This document shows positions 14,180 to 58,376 of a stretch of DNA of 64,000 nt, piece by piece. The notes beneath the pieces are model-generated. The model was not told where the DNA came from. It did no database searches and saw only the letters and a program-made list of their open reading frames with translations. The translations under genes and the position numbers were made by a program. The stretch's first letter is position 1, and each line of letters opens with the position of its first letter. Location of the stretch: NCBI GenBank assembly GCA_018920305.1, contig JAHLMO010000001.1, positions 101,926-165,925 on the forward strand, given 5' to 3'. The stretch comes from Candidatus Aenigmatarchaeota archaeon. GTDB lineage: Archaea; Aenigmatarchaeota; Aenigmatarchaeia; CG10238-14; SpSt-28.

Positions 14180-14283
14180 AGCCCCGTCGTCTAGTGGCCA
14201 AGGATGCCGGGCTTTGGTCAAGCCAAAGCTTTGAAAATAATGAAAGAAACCCGGAGACCCCGGTTCGAATCCGGGCGGGGCTA
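14180..14283 (+). tRNA. tRNA-Gln (anticodon UUG) carrying a 31-nt intron at the canonical 37/38 position.
   Basis: Acceptor AGCCCCG/CGGGGCT. Anticodon stem CCGGG/CCCGG. Loop CUUUGG interrupted by tcaagccaaagctttgaaaataatgaaagaa. T-arm CCCGG-TTCGAAT-CCGGG. No encoded CCA. Confidence 0.8.
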
Positions 14284-26879: not shown

Positions 26880-29738
26880 CTATTTCTTTATTTCGATAAA
26901 AATTTTGATACCATCTAAATCTAATTCATATTTACTTGCTTTTTCAAAAAACAATATCGAATTAGTTTCGCTTTCGATTATTTCTTTATGTTTTTCTATT
27001 AATTTCTTAAATTCTTCATTACTTATATCTATAGCTATATTAATTTTTTCAAAAATACTTAGATTTTCTTTTTTTCTTACTTCTTGAATTTCTCTTATTA
27101 TTTCTCTTAAAATTCCTTCTTCTTTAAGTTTTTTGTCAATTTTTTTATACAAATATACTGTATAGTTTTCTGTATCAATTATTTCATAATCTTCTTTTGC
27201 TTCAAATGAATCTTTAAATTCTATTTTTTTAATATTAGTTAAAATAGATATTATTCTTTTTGCTTTTTTGGCATTCTTTATTTCTTCTTTCTTATAAACG
27301 ATAATAACCTTTTTTAATGGCTGTCTAATTTTTATTTTTGCTTTATTTCTCGCTTCTAAAATATCTTGTATTATTTTTTTTGCAACTTCTACAATATTTT
27401 CAATTTCACTTTTTATAAAACTTTTTTTGGGCTTTGGATAATTCTCTAGATGTACGCTTTCAAAATTTTTAATAAATGAAATTTCTTGGTAGTAATATTC
27501 TGCTAAAAATGGTGTGATAGGAGCTAATATTTTTAGAGATTTGTCAAGGATTTCTAATAATGTATATAAGGCACCTTCTTTATCTTTTCCATTATAGTTG
27601 ATCCAAACTCTATCTCTTATAATTTTTATATAGAATCTCGAAACATCTTCAACTAAAAATTCGAAGAATTTTTTGTTTAATACAAACAACTTATCTAATT
27701 CATAATTCTTTAATGCTTGATTATATTGTAATATTAAGCTATGAAGTTTCGAAAGTATATATTTATCTTCAATCTTTAAATTTTTCTTTTCTGGTTTTTT
27801 ATTAACATATAGTTTTATGAAATTAAATACATTTCTTATAATATTTAATTTTCTATTAATTTCTTCAACTTCTTTCCAATCAAAATAGTAATCTTCCCAT
27901 GGAAAACCAAGAAGAAAATACGCTCTTAAAACATCTCTTCCATACTTATCGATAATTTCTTCTGGAGCTACTATATTTCCTAAACTTTTACTCATTTTTC
28001 TTCCATGTGCATCTAATACGAAACCATGCATTACAATTCTTCTATATGGAGCTTCTCCAAGAGTCATATAGCTTGTAATAATTTGTGAATTCCACCAACC
28101 TCTAATTTGATCTGGACCTTCTATTTCTAGTTGTACTGGCCAAAATTTCTTAAAAAGTTTTTTGTTCTTATGTAAACCTATAGATGCCCACGGCGCAACA
28201 CCACTATCAAACCAAACATCTAGAACATCTTTAATTCTTTCCATTTCGCTTTTACATCTTTCGCACTTTAATTTTATTCGATCAATATATGGTCTATGCA
28301 AATCTTCTATTTCTATTCCTAATTCTTTAACACTTCCAATTACTTTTATATTTCCACAGTTTTTACATTCCCAAATTGGTAATGGAATACCCCAATATCT
28401 TTGTCTAGAAATTGGCCAATCTGATAAGTTTTGTAACCAATCTTTCATTCTATATTTAGCAGAATTTGGATACCAAACAACCTTTTCGATTTCTTCCAAT
28501 AACTTATCTCTAAATTCTGTAACTTTGAAAAACCATTGATGTATTGTTATTATATATAATGGACTTTTACATCTCCAACATATTGGATATTCATGCTTTA
28601 TTTTTTCTTCTTTTAATAGTGCATTTCTTTCTCTTAAAATTTTTATAACAATTTCGTTTACTTCTTTAATTGTTTTATCTTTAAAAATTCCAAAATTGAA
28701 AGTTCCATTTATATTTACACTATTTATAATTGGTAAGTTATATTCTTTGCAAACAATATAATCTTCTTTTCCATGTGCTGGTGCTGCATGAACTAAACCA
28801 CTACCTTCTGTTAAGCTAACAAATCTTTCGCTGAGAATTACTTTGTAAATATTTGATTTATCAAATTCTAATAAATCGCTAAATGGATGTTCATACTCTT
28901 TAAATTCTAATTCCTTTCCTTCAAATTCTCTTATTATTTCATAATTTGCCCAATTAAATTCTTTTGCTAATTTTTCTAACAAATCTTTTGCTACAATATA
29001 AATTTTATCATCAACTTTAACTTCTACATATTTTGCACTTGGTTTTACCATAATTGCTTCGTTATCTACTAAAGTCCATGGTGTTGTAGTCCAGATTATT
29101 AAATATTTATCTTCCTCTTTTAATTTAAATAGAACATAAATTGATGGATCTTCTAATTCTTCATATTCAATTTCGTTATAAGCTAAAACAGTTTCACATC
29201 TAGGACAAATGTGAACTGGATAAAATCCTTTAAACAAATATCCTTTTTTGTATGCTTCTTTAAAAGTATACCAGGCACCTTCAATATATTCATTTGTTAA
29301 AGTTAAATATGGATTATCGAAATTCATCCAGACTCCTAAATTTTTAAATTGTGAGTTCATTACTCCAATAAATTTTGTTGCAAAATTTTTACATTCTTTA
29401 ATAAAATTTTCTATTCCAAAATTTTCAATATCTTTTTTACTCTTAAAATTTAATTGTTTTTCTACTTGATATTCAATTGGTAAGCCATGAGTATCATAAC
29501 CTGCTTGATCCCAAACATTAAAACCATACATTTTATAAATTCTTATAAAAAAGTCTTTCAAAATTTTATTTAGAGCAGTACCCATATGAATGTATCCTGT
29601 AGCATAAGGAGGTCCATCTAAGAAGTAAAAAATTTTTTTATTTTTTAATTTTTCTTTTTGTTTATAATAAATTTTGTTTTCTTCCCAAAAATTTAAAATT
29701 TTTTCTTCTTGAATTTTAAAACTCATTAATAAAAACAT
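26880..29738 (-). CDS. ileS: Isoleucyl-tRNA synthetase.
   Basis: Class I core with PPYATGYIHMGTA (HIGH region, variant HMGT). DWPISRQRYWGIPLP (IleRS-type WCISRQ block). KMSKS (GRKMSKSLGN). Zinc-binding CPRC / CWRC motifs. Confidence 0.85.
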   Translation of the reverse strand: MFLLMSFKIQEEKILNFWEENKIYYKQKEKLKNKKIFYFLDGPPYATGYIHMGTALNKILKDFFIRIYKMYGFNVWDQAGYDTHGLPIEYQVEKQLNFKSKKDIENFGIENFIKECKNFATKFIGVMNSQFKNLGVWMNFDNPYLTLTNEYIEGAWYTFKEAYKKGYLFKGFYPVHICPRCETVLAYNEIEYEELEDPSIYVLFKLKEEDKYLIIWTTTPWTLVDNEAIMVKPSAKYVEVKVDDKIYIVAKDLLEKLAKEFNWANYEIIREFEGKELEFKEYEHPFSDLLEFDKSNIYKVILSERFVSLTEGSGLVHAAPAHGKEDYIVCKEYNLPIINSVNINGTFNFGIFKDKTIKEVNEIVIKILRERNALLKEEKIKHEYPICWRCKSPLYIITIHQWFFKVTEFRDKLLEEIEKVVWYPNSAKYRMKDWLQNLSDWPISRQRYWGIPLPIWECKNCGNIKVIGSVKELGIEIEDLHRPYIDRIKLKCERCKSEMERIKDVLDVWFDSGVAPWASIGLHKNKKLFKKFWPVQLEIEGPDQIRGWWNSQIITSYMTLGEAPYRRIVMHGFVLDAHGRKMSKSLGNIVAPEEIIDKYGRDVLRAYFLLGFPWEDYYFDWKEVEEINRKLNIIRNVFNFIKLYVNKKPEKKNLKIEDKYILSKLHSLILQYNQALKNYELDKLFVLNKKFFEFLVEDVSRFYIKIIRDRVWINYNGKDKEGALYTLLEILDKSLKILAPITPFLAEYYYQEISFIKNFESVHLENYPKPKKSFIKSEIENIVEVAKKIIQDILEARNKAKIKIRQPLKKVIIVYKKEEIKNAKKAKRIISILTNIKKIEFKDSFEAKEDYEIIDTENYTVYLYKKIDKKLKEEGILREIIREIQEVRKKENLSIFEKINIAIDISNEEFKKLIEKHKEIIESETNSILFFEKASKYELDLDGIKIFIEIKK

Positions 29739-42654: not shown

Positions 42655-43059
42655 ATGAAAGTATTATTATCTCATTGTGACTTTATAGAATTTAAACCAA
42701 CAAGAAAAGAATTAAAAGATGCGGAAGATGTAGAAATTAAATTAAGTAGATACGAAGAAATTCTTGTTGCATTTACTTGCATAGAAAAAGACGATAATGA
42801 AGAAAAAACTTTAAAAATGGTAAAAGAAATAGAAAATGTAGCTAATAGAATTGGAGTTAAAAGAATCTTAATATATCCTTTTGCTCACTTAAGTAATAAT
42901 TTAGCAAATCCAAATGAAGCAAAAAAATTAATTAATATTTTGGGGGAAGAATTAAAAAAGATAAATTTTGAAGTTTATTTTGCTCCCTTTGGATGGTCTA
43001 AAGAATTGCATATAAAAATAAAAGGTCATCCTTTAGCAGAAAACTTAAGAACTCTTTAA
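42655..43059 (+). CDS. Free-standing ThrRS editing domain (ThrRS-ed, archaeal DTD-like fold).
   Basis: 134 aa, nearly collinear with the N-terminal editing domain of archaeal ThrRS (MKVLLSHCDFIEF...ILIYPFAHLSNNLANP...FAPFGWSKELHIKIKGHPLAE). Confidence 0.8.
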   Translation: MKVLLSHCDFIEFKPTRKELKDAEDVEIKLSRYEEILVAFTCIEKDDNEEKTLKMVKEIENVANRIGVKRILIYPFAHLSNNLANPNEAKKLINILGEELKKINFEVYFAPFGWSKELHIKIKGHPLAENLRTL

Positions 43060-43092
43060 ATTTTTGAGTAAAGATAATTTATTTAATATGAT

Positions 43093-43165
43093 GCCGGGGT
43101 AGCTCAGTTGGTAGAGCGTCCGGCTGTTAACCGGAAGGTCGCCGGTTCAAATCCGGCCCCCGGCG
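43093..43165 (+). tRNA. tRNA-Asn (anticodon GUU).
   Basis: Acceptor GCCGGGG/CCCCGGC. Anticodon stem-loop TCCGG-CTGTTAA-CCGGA. T-loop GGTTCAAAT. Discriminator G. Confidence 0.85.
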
Positions 43166-43257
43166 AATCAACAAACAACAATAAATATAGAAAGAATAGC
43201 CACTAAAGTTTTTGACCAAACAACACAAATTTATATAACAGTAAAAATTAATTTTTT

Positions 43258-43330
43258 ATGCCCTACCTCGCCAGCCTCTGACGAGCTATGAGTCAAGCTA
43301 GCTATGACTCGGATGCACAGGGTAGGGCAT
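43258..43330. ncRNA. GC-rich 73-nt structured element (candidate small RNA). A 10-bp closing stem ATGCCCTACC/GGTAGGGCAT encloses an internal GAGTCA/TGACTC stem.
   Basis: Read directly. Local GC far above the roughly 25% GC surroundings, with nested inverted repeats. Sits between tRNA-Asn and the 3' end of a minus-strand gene. No class assigned. Confidence 0.3.
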
Positions 43331-43342
43331 AGCGATTGTATA

Positions 43343-50671: not shown

Positions 50672-51958
50672 ATGACAAACATCAAGGAAGCTTTAGAAAA
50701 AGATTTAAAAGAAGTAAGTTTAAGAGGGTGGATTTATAGGAAAAGGGAATTAAAAGATAAAATTTTTGTTGTTTTAAGAGATAAAGATGAAATAATTCAA
50801 TGTGTTTTTTCTAAAGAAAATTTTGATGAAAAAAGTTGGAAAGAATTATTGGAACTTCAAATAGAAGCATCTATAGAAGTTTTTGGATTTGTAAGAGAAG
50901 ATCCAAGAGCCCCCAATGGAAAAGAAGTTGAAGTTAAAAATTATAAAATATTCGATAAAGGATTGCCATTTCCATTACATGGAAGAGAGGAAGTAAGTAC
51001 TATAATGAAATATAGACATCTTTGGATTAGGAGTAGAAAATTTAATGCAATACTAAAAATTAAAGCAACATTAATGCAAGCGTTAAGAGAATGGCTAGAA
51101 AAAAATGAATATATAGAAGTAAACCCACCAATAATTATTCCTGTTGCAGTAGAAGAGGTTCAAACACTTTTTGAAATTAATTATTTCGATAAAAAAGCTT
51201 ATTTAACTCAAAGTTCTCAATTATATTTAGAGGCATTAATTTATTCGTTAGAAAAAGTTTATTGTTTAGCTCCAAGTTTTAGAGCAGAAAAATCGAGAAC
51301 AAGAAGACATTTGCATGAATATTGGCATTTAGAAATAGAAAGTGCATGGTATGATCTAAAAGATATAATGAGAGATGCTGAAAGTATGGTAAAATATGGA
51401 ATTGAAAAAGTTATTGAAAAAAATGAAAAAGAACTTAAATTTTTAAAAAGAGATACTAAAATTCTTGAAAATTACGTTGAAAAACCTTTTGAAAAAATAA
51501 CATATGAAAAAGCAATTGAAATATTGCAAAGTAAAGGTTTAAACATAAATTATGGAGATGATTTAGGTGCAGATGAAGAAAGAGTTTTAACACTAGAATT
51601 CGAAGTCCCTATCTTTGTTACTCATTATCCGAGAAAACTAAAAGCATTTTATATGAAAGAAAGTGGTAATGGAAAAACAGTCGAAAATTTTGATTTATTG
51701 GCTAGCGAAGGTTATGGAGAAATAATTGGTGGAAGTCAAAGAGAGGATGATTATGAAATTCTCAAAAATAAAATAATCGAATGGAATTTGCCATTGGAAA
51801 AGTACGAATGGTATTTAGATTTAAGAAGGTATGGTTCTGTTCCTCATAGTGGATTCGGATTAGGAATAGAAAGAATGTTAATGTGGGTTTGTAAATTAGA
51901 ACATATTAGAGATACTTTACCATTTCCAAGATTAAGAGAAACTGAAATATTAATTTAG
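50672..51958 (+). CDS. asnS: Asparaginyl-tRNA synthetase (class IIb).
   Basis: Near-collinear with archaeal AsnRS: SFRAEKSRTRRHL (motif 2), GYGEIIGGSQRE, LDLRRYGSVPHSGFGLGIERMLMW (motif 3). Confidence 0.8.
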   Translation: MTNIKEALEKDLKEVSLRGWIYRKRELKDKIFVVLRDKDEIIQCVFSKENFDEKSWKELLELQIEASIEVFGFVREDPRAPNGKEVEVKNYKIFDKGLPFPLHGREEVSTIMKYRHLWIRSRKFNAILKIKATLMQALREWLEKNEYIEVNPPIIIPVAVEEVQTLFEINYFDKKAYLTQSSQLYLEALIYSLEKVYCLAPSFRAEKSRTRRHLHEYWHLEIESAWYDLKDIMRDAESMVKYGIEKVIEKNEKELKFLKRDTKILENYVEKPFEKITYEKAIEILQSKGLNINYGDDLGADEERVLTLEFEVPIFVTHYPRKLKAFYMKESGNGKTVENFDLLASEGYGEIIGGSQREDDYEILKNKIIEWNLPLEKYEWYLDLRRYGSVPHSGFGLGIERMLMWVCKLEHIRDTLPFPRLRETEILI

Positions 51959-52187: not shown

Positions 52188-54992
52188 TTAGAAAATAATA
52201 ACTATAGATGGTTTTGCTGGTAACGAATCTTTTGCCTTTATCTCATTACTTTCTTCTTCTTTTTCAATAGTGATTTTACATTTAAACACTTTTTCTAAAA
52301 ATTCTTTATATTGAGATAATATTTCAAATTCTTCTTCTACCAAATAATTCAATATTTTTGGTTTTTTAATTATCCTTTTTGCAACATCATTATCTGAATA
52401 TTTCTTAATTAATTCGTTTAGATTTTTACCGCTGTCTATTTCTTCTTTAATCTTTTTAGCTATTTCTAATTTCTCCCTATTTGCTACAATTATTTTTATT
52501 TCTTTATAATTTGTACCTTTAATCTTTAATATCTCTCTTATATCACTAATCACAAATTCTATATACTCTTCACTCTTTAAAATACCTTCATCTATTTTTT
52601 CTACTTTTGGCCAAGATATGTTTAATGGATCCTTTCCAATTTTTTCAAGAATTTCAGAAGTTATATGTGGAATTATTGGATACAATATAATATTTCTAAC
52701 TTCAATATAATAGTTTAAAACTTCTCTGTTTGGGATGTTAACACTATATAAATATTTGTTGAATTTATTTTCTAATTCGAACCAAGCTTTTTGAATTATG
52801 TTTTTAAAATTTAGATTTTCATATTCATTTTCAACCTCTTTTACAATTTTCTTAATAACGTTTTCGAACCAAAAGTCTATAATTTCTTTTTCTTCTCTTC
52901 CTTTGTTATAATTTTCTATACAAAAATTGTACCATTCTTTTAAGTAGCCTTCAATTTTTTCTGCCAAATTTAATTCTATATTTAAATCTTCTAGTCCAGA
53001 ATTTCCTGCATAAGCACTTAAAAATCTTAATATATCTGCTGAATACTTTTCAATTGCATCTAATATAGGAATAAAATTTCCTTTTGATTTACTCATTTTT
53101 TCTCCATTAATTAATAAAAATCCATTAATTCCAACTCCTTTTGGCCAATATTCTTTTGGAAATATTGCAGCATGATGAAAAATCATAAAAGACAAATGAT
53201 TGGGAATTAAATCTTTTCCACTAATTCTTAAATCCATAGGATACCAATATACAAACTCTTTTCTCATTTCTTCTAAAATTTTTTCATCGATTCCATATTT
53301 TTTAGAAATTTCTTTTGAATTTCCTCTTCCTAAAAATATAAAATCGAAAACTTCTTCATTAAGTTTTTCGGCATCTATATTTTTAATCAAATGAGCGATT
53401 GTATAATATGCCATGTAAATAGTTGAATCAGATAAACTTTCGATAATCCATTCTTTATCCCAAGGCAAAGGAGTACCTAAGCTTTCTTTATGTGTAAAGG
53501 CCCATTCTCTTAATATTTTTATAGAATTTTCAAAATTTCTTCTAGCAATTTCAGGAATTATTTTCATTTGAGATAAACATTCTAGAGCCAATTTTTTCCA
53601 TTCTTCATTAGAATAATCTAAAAACCATTGATCGCTTAATATTTTTACTATAACTTTATTTTTATATCTAGATTCAAATCTTATAGGTAACGTATAATGC
53701 TTCTCAGCAATTGTTAGAGAAATTAATTTTTCGGCAAATTCGTTTTTTATTTCATAAATTTTTCTATTCGAAAATTCTCCAAAAATTTCTTTAGTAAATG
53801 CATTATAAAATTCTTTAGAATAAATTTCTTCTGTAGCTTTTTCTAATTTTTCTTTTTCGTTTTGAGAAGAAATTTTCATTTTTTCAACAATATCTTTTGC
53901 TGGAAAGTCTGAAAATCCTTCTAATTTAAATAGAGATTTCATATTTTTTAGGCATTTTTCGGCAACTTCTTTATACTTTTTATTTTCTGATTTTGTTAAG
54001 TCTATTAATCCAATATAATCGTAAGGAGCATGTGCTGGTACACTCATTACTATTCCTGTACCAATTTCAATATCGACAAAATTAGCTGGTAATATTGGAA
54101 CTTTTTCTTTTGTTAAGGGATTTTCTGCAAAATTCAGAATAACATTTTCTATATCAACTTTTTCTAACACTTCTACATTTTTCTCTTGATTTTTAATTTC
54201 TTCAATAACTATAGAATTTGGTAATAACCAGAATTCTTCATTTACTTTTGCAATTATATATTCATAATTTGGATTTATCCAAATGTTAGTAACTCCATAA
54301 ATAGTTTCTGGCCTTAATGTAAAGCATGGCAATATTATTTCTTTATCTTTATAATAAAATTTAAACTTTATGATATATCCTTCTATATAATCAATTCCAA
54401 CAAAATCATCAGGTCTATCATGATCTCCAATAACTTTTTTAACTTTTGGGTCCCAAATTACTGGATGTTTACCTCTTTTTATAAAACCTTTTTCTCTTAA
54501 TTTAAAATATTGCCATTCGATAAATTTTGAATAATGATTATTTAAACTAGTTGTAAAAAATTCCCTTCTCCAATCTATAGAATATCCTAATTTTTTAAAA
54601 GCTTCTTTTGCTTTTGGAACAAAATATTCAATCCAATATGTTGGATCTTTAAACTTTTCAATTTCTTTTTCGTTAACGTGCATTAGTTCTATTAATTCTT
54701 TTTTAATTTTTTCTTCCCCCTCTCTTAATCTATATGCTGCAGCTATTATTGGAGAGCCTGTTGCATGAAATCCTTGTGCGAACAAAACATTATAGCCTAA
54801 TAATCTTTTAAATCTAGCGATAAATTCGACTCTAGAAGAAGTTGTTAAATGACCTAAATGCAACAATCCATTTACATATGGATATGGAAATGTTACAAAA
54901 AATTTTGGTTTATTTGAAGCATTTGTTTCAAAAACCTTATTTTCTTCCCATATTCTTTGCCATTTTTCTTCGATATTTTTTAGATTTATCAT
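52188..54992 (-). CDS. leuS: Leucyl-tRNA synthetase (archaeal type).
   Basis: HIGH region FPYPYVNGLLHLGH. KMSKS (GEKMSKSKGN). 934 aa with a CP1 editing insertion. Confidence 0.85.
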   Translation of the reverse strand: MINLKNIEEKWQRIWEENKVFETNASNKPKFFVTFPYPYVNGLLHLGHLTTSSRVEFIARFKRLLGYNVLFAQGFHATGSPIIAAAYRLREGEEKIKKELIELMHVNEKEIEKFKDPTYWIEYFVPKAKEAFKKLGYSIDWRREFFTTSLNNHYSKFIEWQYFKLREKGFIKRGKHPVIWDPKVKKVIGDHDRPDDFVGIDYIEGYIIKFKFYYKDKEIILPCFTLRPETIYGVTNIWINPNYEYIIAKVNEEFWLLPNSIVIEEIKNQEKNVEVLEKVDIENVILNFAENPLTKEKVPILPANFVDIEIGTGIVMSVPAHAPYDYIGLIDLTKSENKKYKEVAEKCLKNMKSLFKLEGFSDFPAKDIVEKMKISSQNEKEKLEKATEEIYSKEFYNAFTKEIFGEFSNRKIYEIKNEFAEKLISLTIAEKHYTLPIRFESRYKNKVIVKILSDQWFLDYSNEEWKKLALECLSQMKIIPEIARRNFENSIKILREWAFTHKESLGTPLPWDKEWIIESLSDSTIYMAYYTIAHLIKNIDAEKLNEEVFDFIFLGRGNSKEISKKYGIDEKILEEMRKEFVYWYPMDLRISGKDLIPNHLSFMIFHHAAIFPKEYWPKGVGINGFLLINGEKMSKSKGNFIPILDAIEKYSADILRFLSAYAGNSGLEDLNIELNLAEKIEGYLKEWYNFCIENYNKGREEKEIIDFWFENVIKKIVKEVENEYENLNFKNIIQKAWFELENKFNKYLYSVNIPNREVLNYYIEVRNIILYPIIPHITSEILEKIGKDPLNISWPKVEKIDEGILKSEEYIEFVISDIREILKIKGTNYKEIKIIVANREKLEIAKKIKEEIDSGKNLNELIKKYSDNDVAKRIIKKPKILNYLVEEEFEILSQYKEFLEKVFKCKITIEKEEESNEIKAKDSLPAKPSIVIIF

Positions 54993-56891: not shown

Positions 56892-58376
56892 ATGTATGAA
56901 GATTTAATAAAAGCTGTAAATAATTTTTTAGAGGCAAATGTTGTAGAAAAAGGAAAAAAAGAAGATAAATATTTTGTTGATTTTGATTGCAGAGTTTTAT
57001 ACAAAGATGATATAGAAAAAATTCAAAAGTATTTAGATGAAAATTCGAAATTTCATTATGTAATACTTTCTTTCTCTTCTTCTTTTTCTAAATCTTTAAA
57101 TAAAGCAACACAAAGAATTTATTTTAAAGTTTTTGAAACTAAAGAAGAAAAGGAAAAATTTTTAAAAGAATTAGAAGAGGCAAAAAAAAGAGATCATAGA
57201 TATTTAGGAGAAAAATTAGATATTTTTCATATTGAAGAAGAAATAATTGGTAGTGGATTGCCTTTATTTCATTTCAACGGAGCAATAATAATAGATGAAT
57301 TAAAAAAACTGATCAAAGAAGTTAATAATAGATTAGGCTATAGAGAAGTAATTACTCCACATATCTCTAAAACATTTTTATGGAAATTAAGTGGTCATTA
57401 CGAAAAATATAAAGATAGAATATTTTTAATTCAAGAGGATGATGAAGAATTTGGATTAAAACCAATGAACTGTCCTATGCATTTAATGATATTTAAGTCT
57501 AGAGTTAGAAGTTATAGAGATTTACCTTTTAGAATTGCTGAATTTGCTACAGTTTATAGAAGAGAACAAAGTGGAGAATTGCATGGATTAACTAGAGTTT
57601 GGAGTATAACGCAAGATGATCATCATTGTGTATTATCTATGGAACATCTAAAAGATGAAATTAAAAGAATTATTAATGAAATAATTAATGTTTATAAAAT
57701 TTTTGGTTTAGATGTTAAATTTAATTTATCTACAAGACCAGAAAATTTTATCGGAAATTTAGAGGATTGGGAATTTGCTGAAAAAACTCTAAGAGAAATA
57801 TTAGAAGAATTGAATGTAAAATACGAAATAAAAGAAAAAGAAGGCGCCTTCTATGGTCCAAAAATTGATATAGATGTTAAGGATGCATTTAATAGATATT
57901 GGCAATTAGCGACAATTCAATTAGATTTTAACATGCCAAGAAGATTAGATATAACTTATGTTGATAAAGATAATAAAGAAAAATATCCAATAATGATTCA
58001 TTTTGCTATTCTAGGCTCTTTTGAAAGATTTGTTGGTATAATTTTGGAACACTTTGCTGGCAAGTTACCATTATGGTTAGCTCCAATTCAAGTTAGTATT
58101 TTGCCATTATCTGAAAAATATGAAGAAGAAGCAAAAAAACTTTTCGAAGAATTAACAAAAGAAAATATAAGAGCAGAAATATTAAGCGAAGGTACAATAG
58201 AATATAGAGTTAGAGATGCTGAAACAAGATATATACCATATATAATAGTTATAGGAAAAAAGGAGATAGAATCTGGTAATTTAACTATAAGATATAGAGG
58301 TACTTTATTTTCTATGAATAAAGAAGAGTTTAAAAGCAAAATTATAGAAAAAATTAGAAATAGGGAAAGAGATTAA
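56892..58376 (+). CDS. thrS: Threonyl-tRNA synthetase, catalytic and anticodon-binding part only (ThrRS-cat). The N-terminal editing domain is missing.
   Basis: Class II core with GLKPMNCPMH (ThrRS zinc site), FRIAEFATVYRRE (motif 2), GAFYGPKID and the C-terminal anticodon-binding domain. 494 aa, about 130 aa shorter than fused archaeal ThrRS. Confidence 0.85.
   Translation: MYEDLIKAVNNFLEANVVEKGKKEDKYFVDFDCRVLYKDDIEKIQKYLDENSKFHYVILSFSSSFSKSLNKATQRIYFKVFETKEEKEKFLKELEEAKKRDHRYLGEKLDIFHIEEEIIGSGLPLFHFNGAIIIDELKKLIKEVNNRLGYREVITPHISKTFLWKLSGHYEKYKDRIFLIQEDDEEFGLKPMNCPMHLMIFKSRVRSYRDLPFRIAEFATVYRREQSGELHGLTRVWSITQDDHHCVLSMEHLKDEIKRIINEIINVYKIFGLDVKFNLSTRPENFIGNLEDWEFAEKTLREILEELNVKYEIKEKEGAFYGPKIDIDVKDAFNRYWQLATIQLDFNMPRRLDITYVDKDNKEKYPIMIHFAILGSFERFVGIILEHFAGKLPLWLAPIQVSILPLSEKYEEEAKKLFEELTKENIRAEILSEGTIEYRVRDAETRYIPYIIVIGKKEIESGNLTIRYRGTLFSMNKEEFKSKIIEKIRNRERD

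Follow-up and report, generated by a model that had tools for sequence, protein, structure and literature searches.

The 64-kb stretch of DNA analysed here (hereafter, the window) has a G+C content of 25%, and its exact proteins recur in several MAGs labelled 'Candidatus Aenigmatarchaeota archaeon'; for two of its large proteins, matching by exact sequence gave no hit, probably owing to different start-codon calls. Two of its genes are the subject of this work. A small gene at 42655..43059 (+) encodes a stand-alone archaeal threonyl-tRNA synthetase (ThrRS) editing domain of 134 aa with a DTD-like fold (tRNA-Thr-ED, hereafter ED), and a gene at 56892..58376 (+) encodes a 494-aa ThrRS of the bacterial-like 'ThrRS-C' type (ThrRS-cat). 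They lie on the same strand and 13.8 kb apart, in agreement with the spacing of about 14 kb given in the initial annotation of this DNA. The thrS gene is one of four aminoacyl-tRNA synthetase genes found inside 32 kb of the window; the others encode a 952-aa class I enzyme with a DUF5915 tail (26880-29738, minus strand), an Asp/Asn-type class II enzyme (50672-51958, plus strand) and a 934-aa class I enzyme (52188-54992, minus strand). The window also holds seven tRNA genes and the genes for EF-1alpha, ribosomal proteins S4e and L5, Cbf5 and Kae1. The seventh tRNA gene (14180-14283, plus strand; 104 nt; 50.8 bits in Rfam) was missed by ARAGORN and carries an insertion of about 34 nt in the anticodon arm. 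Its anticodon loop, read by eye as CUUUGG, identifies it as a tRNA-Gln(UUG) with an intron, and its discriminator base is A. In other Aenigmatarchaeota MAGs (L083 19679-19768 and L087 4057-4153), ARAGORN reported genes of 90-97 nt as 'tRNA-???' with four-base anticodons (ccta, tccg); in all probability, these are tRNAs with introns that the bacterial mode of the program misread.

A tRNA-Arg gene is located upstream of the ED gene, and a tRNA-Asn(GTT) gene (43092-43166, plus strand; ARAGORN; 78.5 bits in Rfam) follows 33 nt past its stop codon, directly downstream as originally described. This direct 3' adjacency of tRNA-Asn is found only in the window's species and in a 96% relative (L014). 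In L016 and L005, the tRNA-Asn gene is 1.2 kb and 2 kb away from the ED gene, respectively, with genes intervening, and it is absent at the ED/thrS loci of L009, L012, and L017, where tRNA-Gln is a recurrent neighbour. As the adjacency is confined to the closest species, we rejected a functional tie between the ED and tRNA-Asn; the arrangement is local synteny outside the editing system. A tRNA-Thr gene was found neither in the window (ARAGORN and Rfam) nor at 16 related loci (ARAGORN). Between the tRNA-Asn gene and the next gene lies a G+C-rich hairpin of about 75 nt (43256-43332, plus strand; MFE -32.5 kcal/mol, z = -2.9) that has no Rfam match. It is conserved in relatives, with 79 nt aligning at 95% in L014 and 55 nt at 89% in L005/L015, at varying distances to the ED gene, and compensatory changes preserve two of its base pairs, making it a candidate structured small RNA.

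The small ORF starts with ATG, and its product contains FAPFGWSKELHIKIKGHPL. The protein matches the Pfam profile PF08915 (tRNA-Thr_ED) with 146.4 bits (cutoff 30.2; E 7.3e-43) over its whole length, with residues 1-133 aligned to positions 1-136 of the 137 in the profile. The solved ThrRS editing domains of P. abyssi, M. jannaschii, and A. pernix match it with E values of 2.5e-29 to 1e-20 (best 1y2q, E 2.5e-29), and the P. abyssi domain is 46% identical over the full length. It is a single domain without a catalytic or anticodon-binding domain (no PF03129 match) and thus agrees with the definition of a stand-alone tRNA-Thr-ED as the editing domain alone (Mukai 2017). The reading of 42655-43059 as a free-standing ThrRS editing domain, already made in the initial annotation, is therefore confirmed from end to end. 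Membership in the crenarchaeal ThrRS-ed family (NF011500, PRK14938) was rejected, as the protein reached only 106.8 bits against a cutoff of 362 and covered only positions 1-129 of the 387 in the model.

Fifteen orthologues of 133-140 aa were identified, for which NCBI uses the name 'threonyl-tRNA synthetase editing domain-containing protein'. All but one of them are 133-135 aa long, with identities down to 51%; the most distant homologue (P0015, 140 aa, 40% identity) has an alanine at the position of E134. Similar small ED proteins are also present in Culexarchaeia and Odinarchaeia. The seven residues that form the substrate pocket, P80, F81, A82, H83, Y120, K121, and E134 in P. abyssi numbering, lie within 6 Å of the scissile bond (Ahmad et al. 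2015, PMC4491819). Six of the seven are identical in the 134-aa protein, and these six (P80, F81, A82, H83, K121, and E134) are also identical in the 14 orthologues of 133-135 aa; fused ED relatives have the same pocket residues except for conservative F81Y changes. The seventh, Y120, is replaced by serine. Throughout the clade, this position (residue 115 of the 134-aa protein) is occupied by Ser, Ala, Thr, Asn, or Cys in stand-alone and fused EDs alike, and canonical domains keep the tyrosine. Early work suggested that position 120 aids in the rejection of threonine, which counts against the editor role proposed below; Y120A mutants retain both activity and the discrimination between serine and threonine (Ahmad et al. 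2015, PMC4491819).

Both genes are under purifying selection, with a dN/dS of 0.17 for the ED compared to its 78%-identical orthologue in L005 and of 0.13 for the ThrRS between the same two genomes, so that constraint on the ED is comparable to that on the ThrRS itself. These values, together with the pocket, bear on the suggestion that the small protein has no role in threonine fidelity at all, being either a decaying relic of an ancestral archaeal ThrRS or a general D-aminoacyl-tRNA deacylase (DtdA/DTD). Reduced genomes often hold gene fragments, and the ED fold is related to DTD, which would be in keeping with one or the other. A relic or pseudogene is contradicted by the conserved length: in 15 orthologues, with identities as low as 40%, the ORF stops exactly where the domain does, and the DNA downstream of it consists of a tRNA gene rather than of ThrRS remains. 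The conserved serine-pocket residues and the dN/dS of 0.17 instead indicate that the gene is a maintained, intact editing domain. As for a deacylase, the corresponding profile (PF02580) stays below its cutoff of 25 at 13.7 bits (E 0.079), no individual stretch passing alone, versus 146 bits for PF08915. A better alignment to DtdA, the outcome that the initial annotation had named as one that would overturn its reading, is thus not observed. Taken together, a relic or a general deacylase is scarcely credible.

The 494-aa protein encoded at 56892-58376 is a ThrRS, as the initial annotation had it: it matches TIGR00418 with 511.9 bits (cutoff 383.65; model positions 1-76 unmatched) and contains a class II catalytic core (residues 181-388 by Pfam, 57432..58055, plus strand; PF00587, E 1.8e-47) and an anticodon-binding domain (residues 400-486, 58089..58349, plus strand; PF03129, E 1e-17). 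The archaeal model PRK03991 reaches 219.8 bits, and the E. coli enzyme (1qf6) scores 378 bits compared to 209 bits for A. pernix ThrRS-1 (3a31). Judged by these scores, the enzyme is of the bacterial-like lineage, the 'ThrRS-C' of Andam and Gogarten. Its catalytic core starts near residue 100, at RDHRYLG. The zinc ligands C194, H245, and H370 do not vary across an alignment of 42 sequences and correspond to the residues that E. coli has within PMNCPGH, TQDDAH, and MIHRAILGS. With these ligands and the class II motifs conserved, the synthetic site looks functional. The zinc site of ThrRS shuts out valine, not serine; by analogy with other ThrRS, the 494-aa enzyme should thus still make some Ser-tRNA(Thr).

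The initial annotation held that the ThrRS begins roughly where the catalytic core starts, and this needs to be corrected. The approximately 96 residues that precede the core (residues 1-96, 56892..57179, plus strand) were assigned by alignment, AF2 model, and fold search to a folded vestige of the bacterial N2 domain. The AF2 model has a pLDDT of 90.4 overall and of 86-93 across residues 1-96, which are predicted to fold into a helix, two strands, a helix, and two further strands, followed by a linker helix. The TM-score of the model is 0.85-0.88 to the full-length enzymes 1qf6 and 1nyq and 0.76-0.78 to core-only chains. In alignments with bacterial ThrRS and with the graded relatives described below, the N-terminus of the protein begins just past the position of the HxxxH motif, and an internal deletion of about 70 columns takes out CxxxH. 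Neither of these two bacterial editing-site motifs is present in the 494-aa ThrRS, all four motif residues being gone in the alignment, and no Pfam match to PF07973 (tRNA_SAD) was found in it. By alignment and structure prediction, residues 1-96 are thus a remnant of the bacterial N2 editing domain without a working editing site. The other outcome named in advance as fatal to the original reading, a functional editing domain retained in the N-terminal 100 aa of the ThrRS, is accordingly contradicted by the loss of both motifs.

Two proteins that rank among the nearest homologues of the window ThrRS, P0182 (713 aa) and P0053 (712 aa), contain an ED, a degenerate N2, and a catalytic core in one chain, and their core is 59% identical to that of the window enzyme. 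Of the fused EDs, that of P0182 also scores highest against the window ED (131 bits), ahead of every canonical archaeal ThrRS. Further arrangements were found in relatives in which the two genes are separate. In the Aenigmarchaeota MAG L009, a thrS gene encoding 561 aa with a degenerate N2 precedes a gene for a 134-aa ED, whose ATG overlaps the thrS stop by 4 nt (ATGA). In L017, the ED gene comes first, and 312 nt separate it from a co-oriented thrS-cat that encodes 499 aa; in L005/L008 (the 78% relative), ED and thrS are on one contig, 19 kb apart. No ED gene is found near the thrS locus of L010/L011, a close relative, so the ED is either located elsewhere or missing there. A thrS-TrmB-DNA ligase neighbourhood is common to L009, L010, L011, and L012, and the occurrence of this shared locus with and without an ED indicates that the ED has moved in and out of one locus.

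The N2 motifs of these enzymes form a graded series. Aligned with bacterial enzymes, P0245 and P0209 have intact HxxxH and CxxxH motifs. Erosion is seen in P0031, which has HTSAH and the C but no H of the second motif, and in P0182, P0053, P0181, and P0184, and the motifs are wholly absent in the window-type enzymes of 488-499 aa. Fusion, operon formation, and adjacency are classical signs of a functional partnership. Their occurrence in relatives, together with the dead N2 site, makes trans-editing of Ser-tRNA(Thr) the best explanation for the pair of genes in the window. The claim of the initial annotation that editing is supplied in trans is thus well supported, a separate intact ED occurring alongside a ThrRS without a working cis-editing site, and its overall reading stands with corrections.

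We therefore propose, with a probability of roughly 0.8, that the 134-aa ED edits Ser-tRNA(Thr) in trans for a ThrRS whose own cis-editing site has been lost, a reading drawn from comparative sequence analysis. It is based on the domain identities of the two proteins, the loss of the N2 motifs, the conservation of the ED pocket, purifying selection, and the genomic coupling of ED and thrS in relatives. According to this proposal, the organism, an uncultured member of the Aenigmatarchaeota (DPANN) with a tiny genome, would charge tRNA-Thr via the bacterial-like ThrRS, and some Ser-tRNA(Thr) would be made in the process. The ED, predicted to act as a homodimer by homology with the P. abyssi, M. 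jannaschii, and A. pernix domains, would bind the seryl-A76 end of the released Ser-tRNA(Thr) and hydrolyse it while rejecting Thr-tRNA(Thr). Hydrolysis may be aided by the A76 2'-OH of the tRNA itself, since the published mechanism of the ED is an RNA-assisted catalysis via this group. With no anticodon-binding domain in the 134-aa protein, the tRNA would have to be recognised by its acceptor end. According to reviews, the P. abyssi domain on its own is active in vitro on Ser-tRNA(Thr) in preference to other Ser-tRNAs, and the discriminator base U73 is a possible basis of this selectivity (PMC11295145; PMC8762117).

As tRNA-Cys also has U73, the 134-aa protein could instead clear Ser-tRNA(Cys) arising from the SepRS/SepCysS pathway and not serve the ThrRS. 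In some Euryarchaeota and DPANN, ED-only proteins occur in linkage with SepCysS genes of clade VII, and Mukai et al. propose such a Ser-tRNA(Cys) role for them (PMC5424206 Text S1; PMC8762117). The window ED does not fall into this SepCysS-associated subgroup of tRNA-Thr-EDs, its gene neighbours being Cbf5, tRNA-Arg, an EncFtn-like gene, and tRNA-Asn. SepRS and SepCysS genes were found neither in the 64-kb window nor beside the ED in any relative examined; instead, the ED of relatives is fused to, overlaps with, or adjoins thrS, and the partner ThrRS has no editing site of its own. We consider a dedicated function in Ser-tRNA(Cys) clearance very unlikely.

Another possibility is that a full-length, cis-editing ThrRS is encoded elsewhere in the genome and that the 134-aa and 494-aa proteins are accessory or redundant paralogues, for example, stress isoforms. 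Canonical ED-fused ThrRS-R enzymes are common in other Aenigmatarchaeota MAGs, and the part of the genome covered here is the 64-kb window. Several observations argue mildly against such redundancy. No paralogue of either protein was detected within the window by tblastn, none of the 120 listed ThrRS-R matches is on a contig carrying genes of the window clade, and each of the four species with a stand-alone ED appears once among the best 80 species-level ED loci from up to 600 rows, with no second ED locus among these 80. Purifying selection on both genes is as strong as on a housekeeping enzyme, which likewise weakly speaks for a central role rather than a redundant one. A second, self-sufficient ThrRS thus seems unlikely, and we infer that the 494-aa enzyme, with the ED editing in trans, may be the only ThrRS of the organism.

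Fusions of about 565 aa that combine an ED with a C-type core (for example, those in L019, L061, and L076) occur in Nitrososphaerales, Micrarchaeota, and other Aenigmatarchaeota. Some DPANN ThrRS, of which those with a named source are labelled Micrarchaeota, have two editing-type domains in tandem: P0083 (800 aa) has an archaeal ED and a YbaK/ProRS-INS-like PF04073 domain, P0055 (784 aa) and P0131 (772 aa) have an ED and a tRNA_SAD-like domain keeping CxxxH, and P0031 (710 aa) has an ED and an N2 domain keeping HxxxH; P0105 (723 aa) also belongs to this group. Archaeal-type ThrRS-R enzymes without an ED were observed as well (P0304 (488 aa, Micrarchaeota), P0323, P0324, P0326, and P0350), which suggests that the ED has been separated from the core on the ThrRS-R lineage, too. 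In another Aenigmatarchaeota MAG (L018, 8492-10028), an ED-core thrS is split into ORFs of 218 aa and 303 aa within the catalytic domain, and this break may stem from a frameshift, from pseudogene formation, or from faulty assembly.

The initial annotation compared the arrangement in the window to that known from Sulfolobales and Aeropyrum. The trans-editing logic of this comparison holds. In the crenarchaeal split of ThrRS into ThrRS-cat and ThrRS-ed, reported for Sulfolobus solfataricus and Aeropyrum pernix (Korencic 2004; Shimizu 2009, as cited in PMC7373986 and PMC5424206 Text S1), a ThrRS without cis-editing is, according to these citing accounts, likewise accompanied by a separate DTD-like ED that hydrolyses Ser-tRNA(Thr) in trans, the activity predicted here for the 134-aa protein. 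The catalytic enzyme is bacterial-like in both cases, and the ThrRS-cat of Acidianus (P0196) is 48% identical to the window ThrRS. The comparison fails with respect to the editor: crenarchaeal ThrRS-ed is a protein of about 390-400 aa with an anticodon-binding domain, whereas the window editor is the 134-aa domain alone. The anticodon-binding domain of ThrRS-ed is thought to confer tRNA specificity. To our knowledge, trans-editing of Ser-tRNA(Thr) has been demonstrated experimentally only for crenarchaeal ThrRS-ed.

ED-only proteins have been catalogued before as tRNA-Thr-ED, which have no anticodon-binding domain, unlike all characterised Ser-tRNA(Thr) hydrolases (Mukai 2017 mBio, PMC5424206 Text S1). 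The window ED resembles these catalogued proteins (Mukai 2017, 2022 Front Genet), including the 'Ser-tRNA(Thr) hydrolase' of Ignicoccus hospitalis (WP_011998431), in consisting of the ED only and in its conserved pocket residues; the Ignicoccus genome paper (Podar 2008) holds nothing on ThrRS. It differs from them in its partner, as the emphasis in the catalogues is on SepCysS-linked genes with a possible Ser-tRNA(Cys) role, and the partner here is a thrS with a dead editing domain. The identity to the P. abyssi ED and the six shared pocket residues are described above. In Pyrococcus, the ED forms the N-terminal part of a ThrRS-R of 625 aa and edits in cis, and it has Tyr120 where the window protein has serine. 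The chimeric ThrRS of DPANN and Nitrososphaerota that join an ED to a C-type core (e.g. P0182, 713 aa; P0031, 710 aa) are made of the same two building blocks as the window pair, P0182 being the nearest fused relative of both window proteins; unlike in these single polypeptides, the blocks are encoded in the window by two genes 13.8 kb apart, and the N2 vestige is shorter. Yeast mitochondrial MST1 (PDB 3ugq), composed of a catalytic core and an anticodon-binding domain, is also a ThrRS without a functional editing domain. In contrast to MST1, which has neither a dedicated trans editor of the ED family nor an N2 vestige, the window encodes a putative trans editor and an N2 vestige. Thus, the ED-only proteins themselves, the functional logic of the Sulfolobus/Aeropyrum split, and the common fusions of an ED with a C-type core are already known. 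No description of an ED-only protein paired with thrS was found for Aenigmatarchaeota in the literature searched, and compared to this literature, the pairing of a bare ED with a C-type ThrRS that has an N2 vestige, the graded series of N2 decay, and the repeated rearrangement of ED and thrS are new.

The evolutionary history of the split is less clear-cut than a single event. In a neighbour-joining tree of the catalytic cores, read without bootstrap values, forms with and without the fusion are intermixed within the Aenigmatarchaeota clade, with P0182 grouping with P0184 and P0053 being sister to P0181/P0182/P0184, and the Acidianus ThrRS-cat (P0196) falls outside this clade. For the ED, 66 of 100 bootstrap trees join the window clade to the DPANN fused forms and 12 join it to the Sulfolobales ThrRS-ed, the window clade itself being recovered in 22 of 100, so the grouping of the ED with DPANN rather than Sulfolobales sequences is suggestive only. 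The trees point to a split that would be independent of the one in Sulfolobales. A model in which an ED-thrS fusion was split just once was discarded as oversimplified: the ED is located downstream of thrS in L009, and this order, together with the interleaving of fused and unfused forms in the core tree, requires several rearrangements.

One scenario for these rearrangements is that the ED joined a ThrRS that still had N2 (as in P0031), that N2 then decayed (P0182, P0184), and that it persists as a vestige in the window enzyme, with the ED being repeatedly fused, shifted downstream, shifted upstream, or dispersed relative to thrS. About as likely as not is this wider proposal, in which the bare 134-residue domain would be the sole proofreader of a bacterial-like ThrRS and the lineage would record the stepwise displacement of one editing domain by another. 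The graded relatives, from an ED with a near-complete N2 through an ED with a degenerate N2 to operonic, adjacent, and dispersed (14-19 kb) arrangements, document that, in one enzyme family, an editing domain has given way to a non-homologous one. For genome annotation, they imply that enzymes of about 490 aa called 'threonine--tRNA ligase' in DPANN are editing-deficient and that fidelity then rests on a small gene, which is easily overlooked or lost in incomplete MAGs. A system with a bare ED would also directly test whether recognition of the acceptor end (U73) suffices for specific proofreading in a cell. If the wider proposal is true, the pair of genes described here would have reinvented the crenarchaeal split independently and in minimal form, and would offer a test, set by nature, of the minimum protein needed for tRNA-specific editing in trans.
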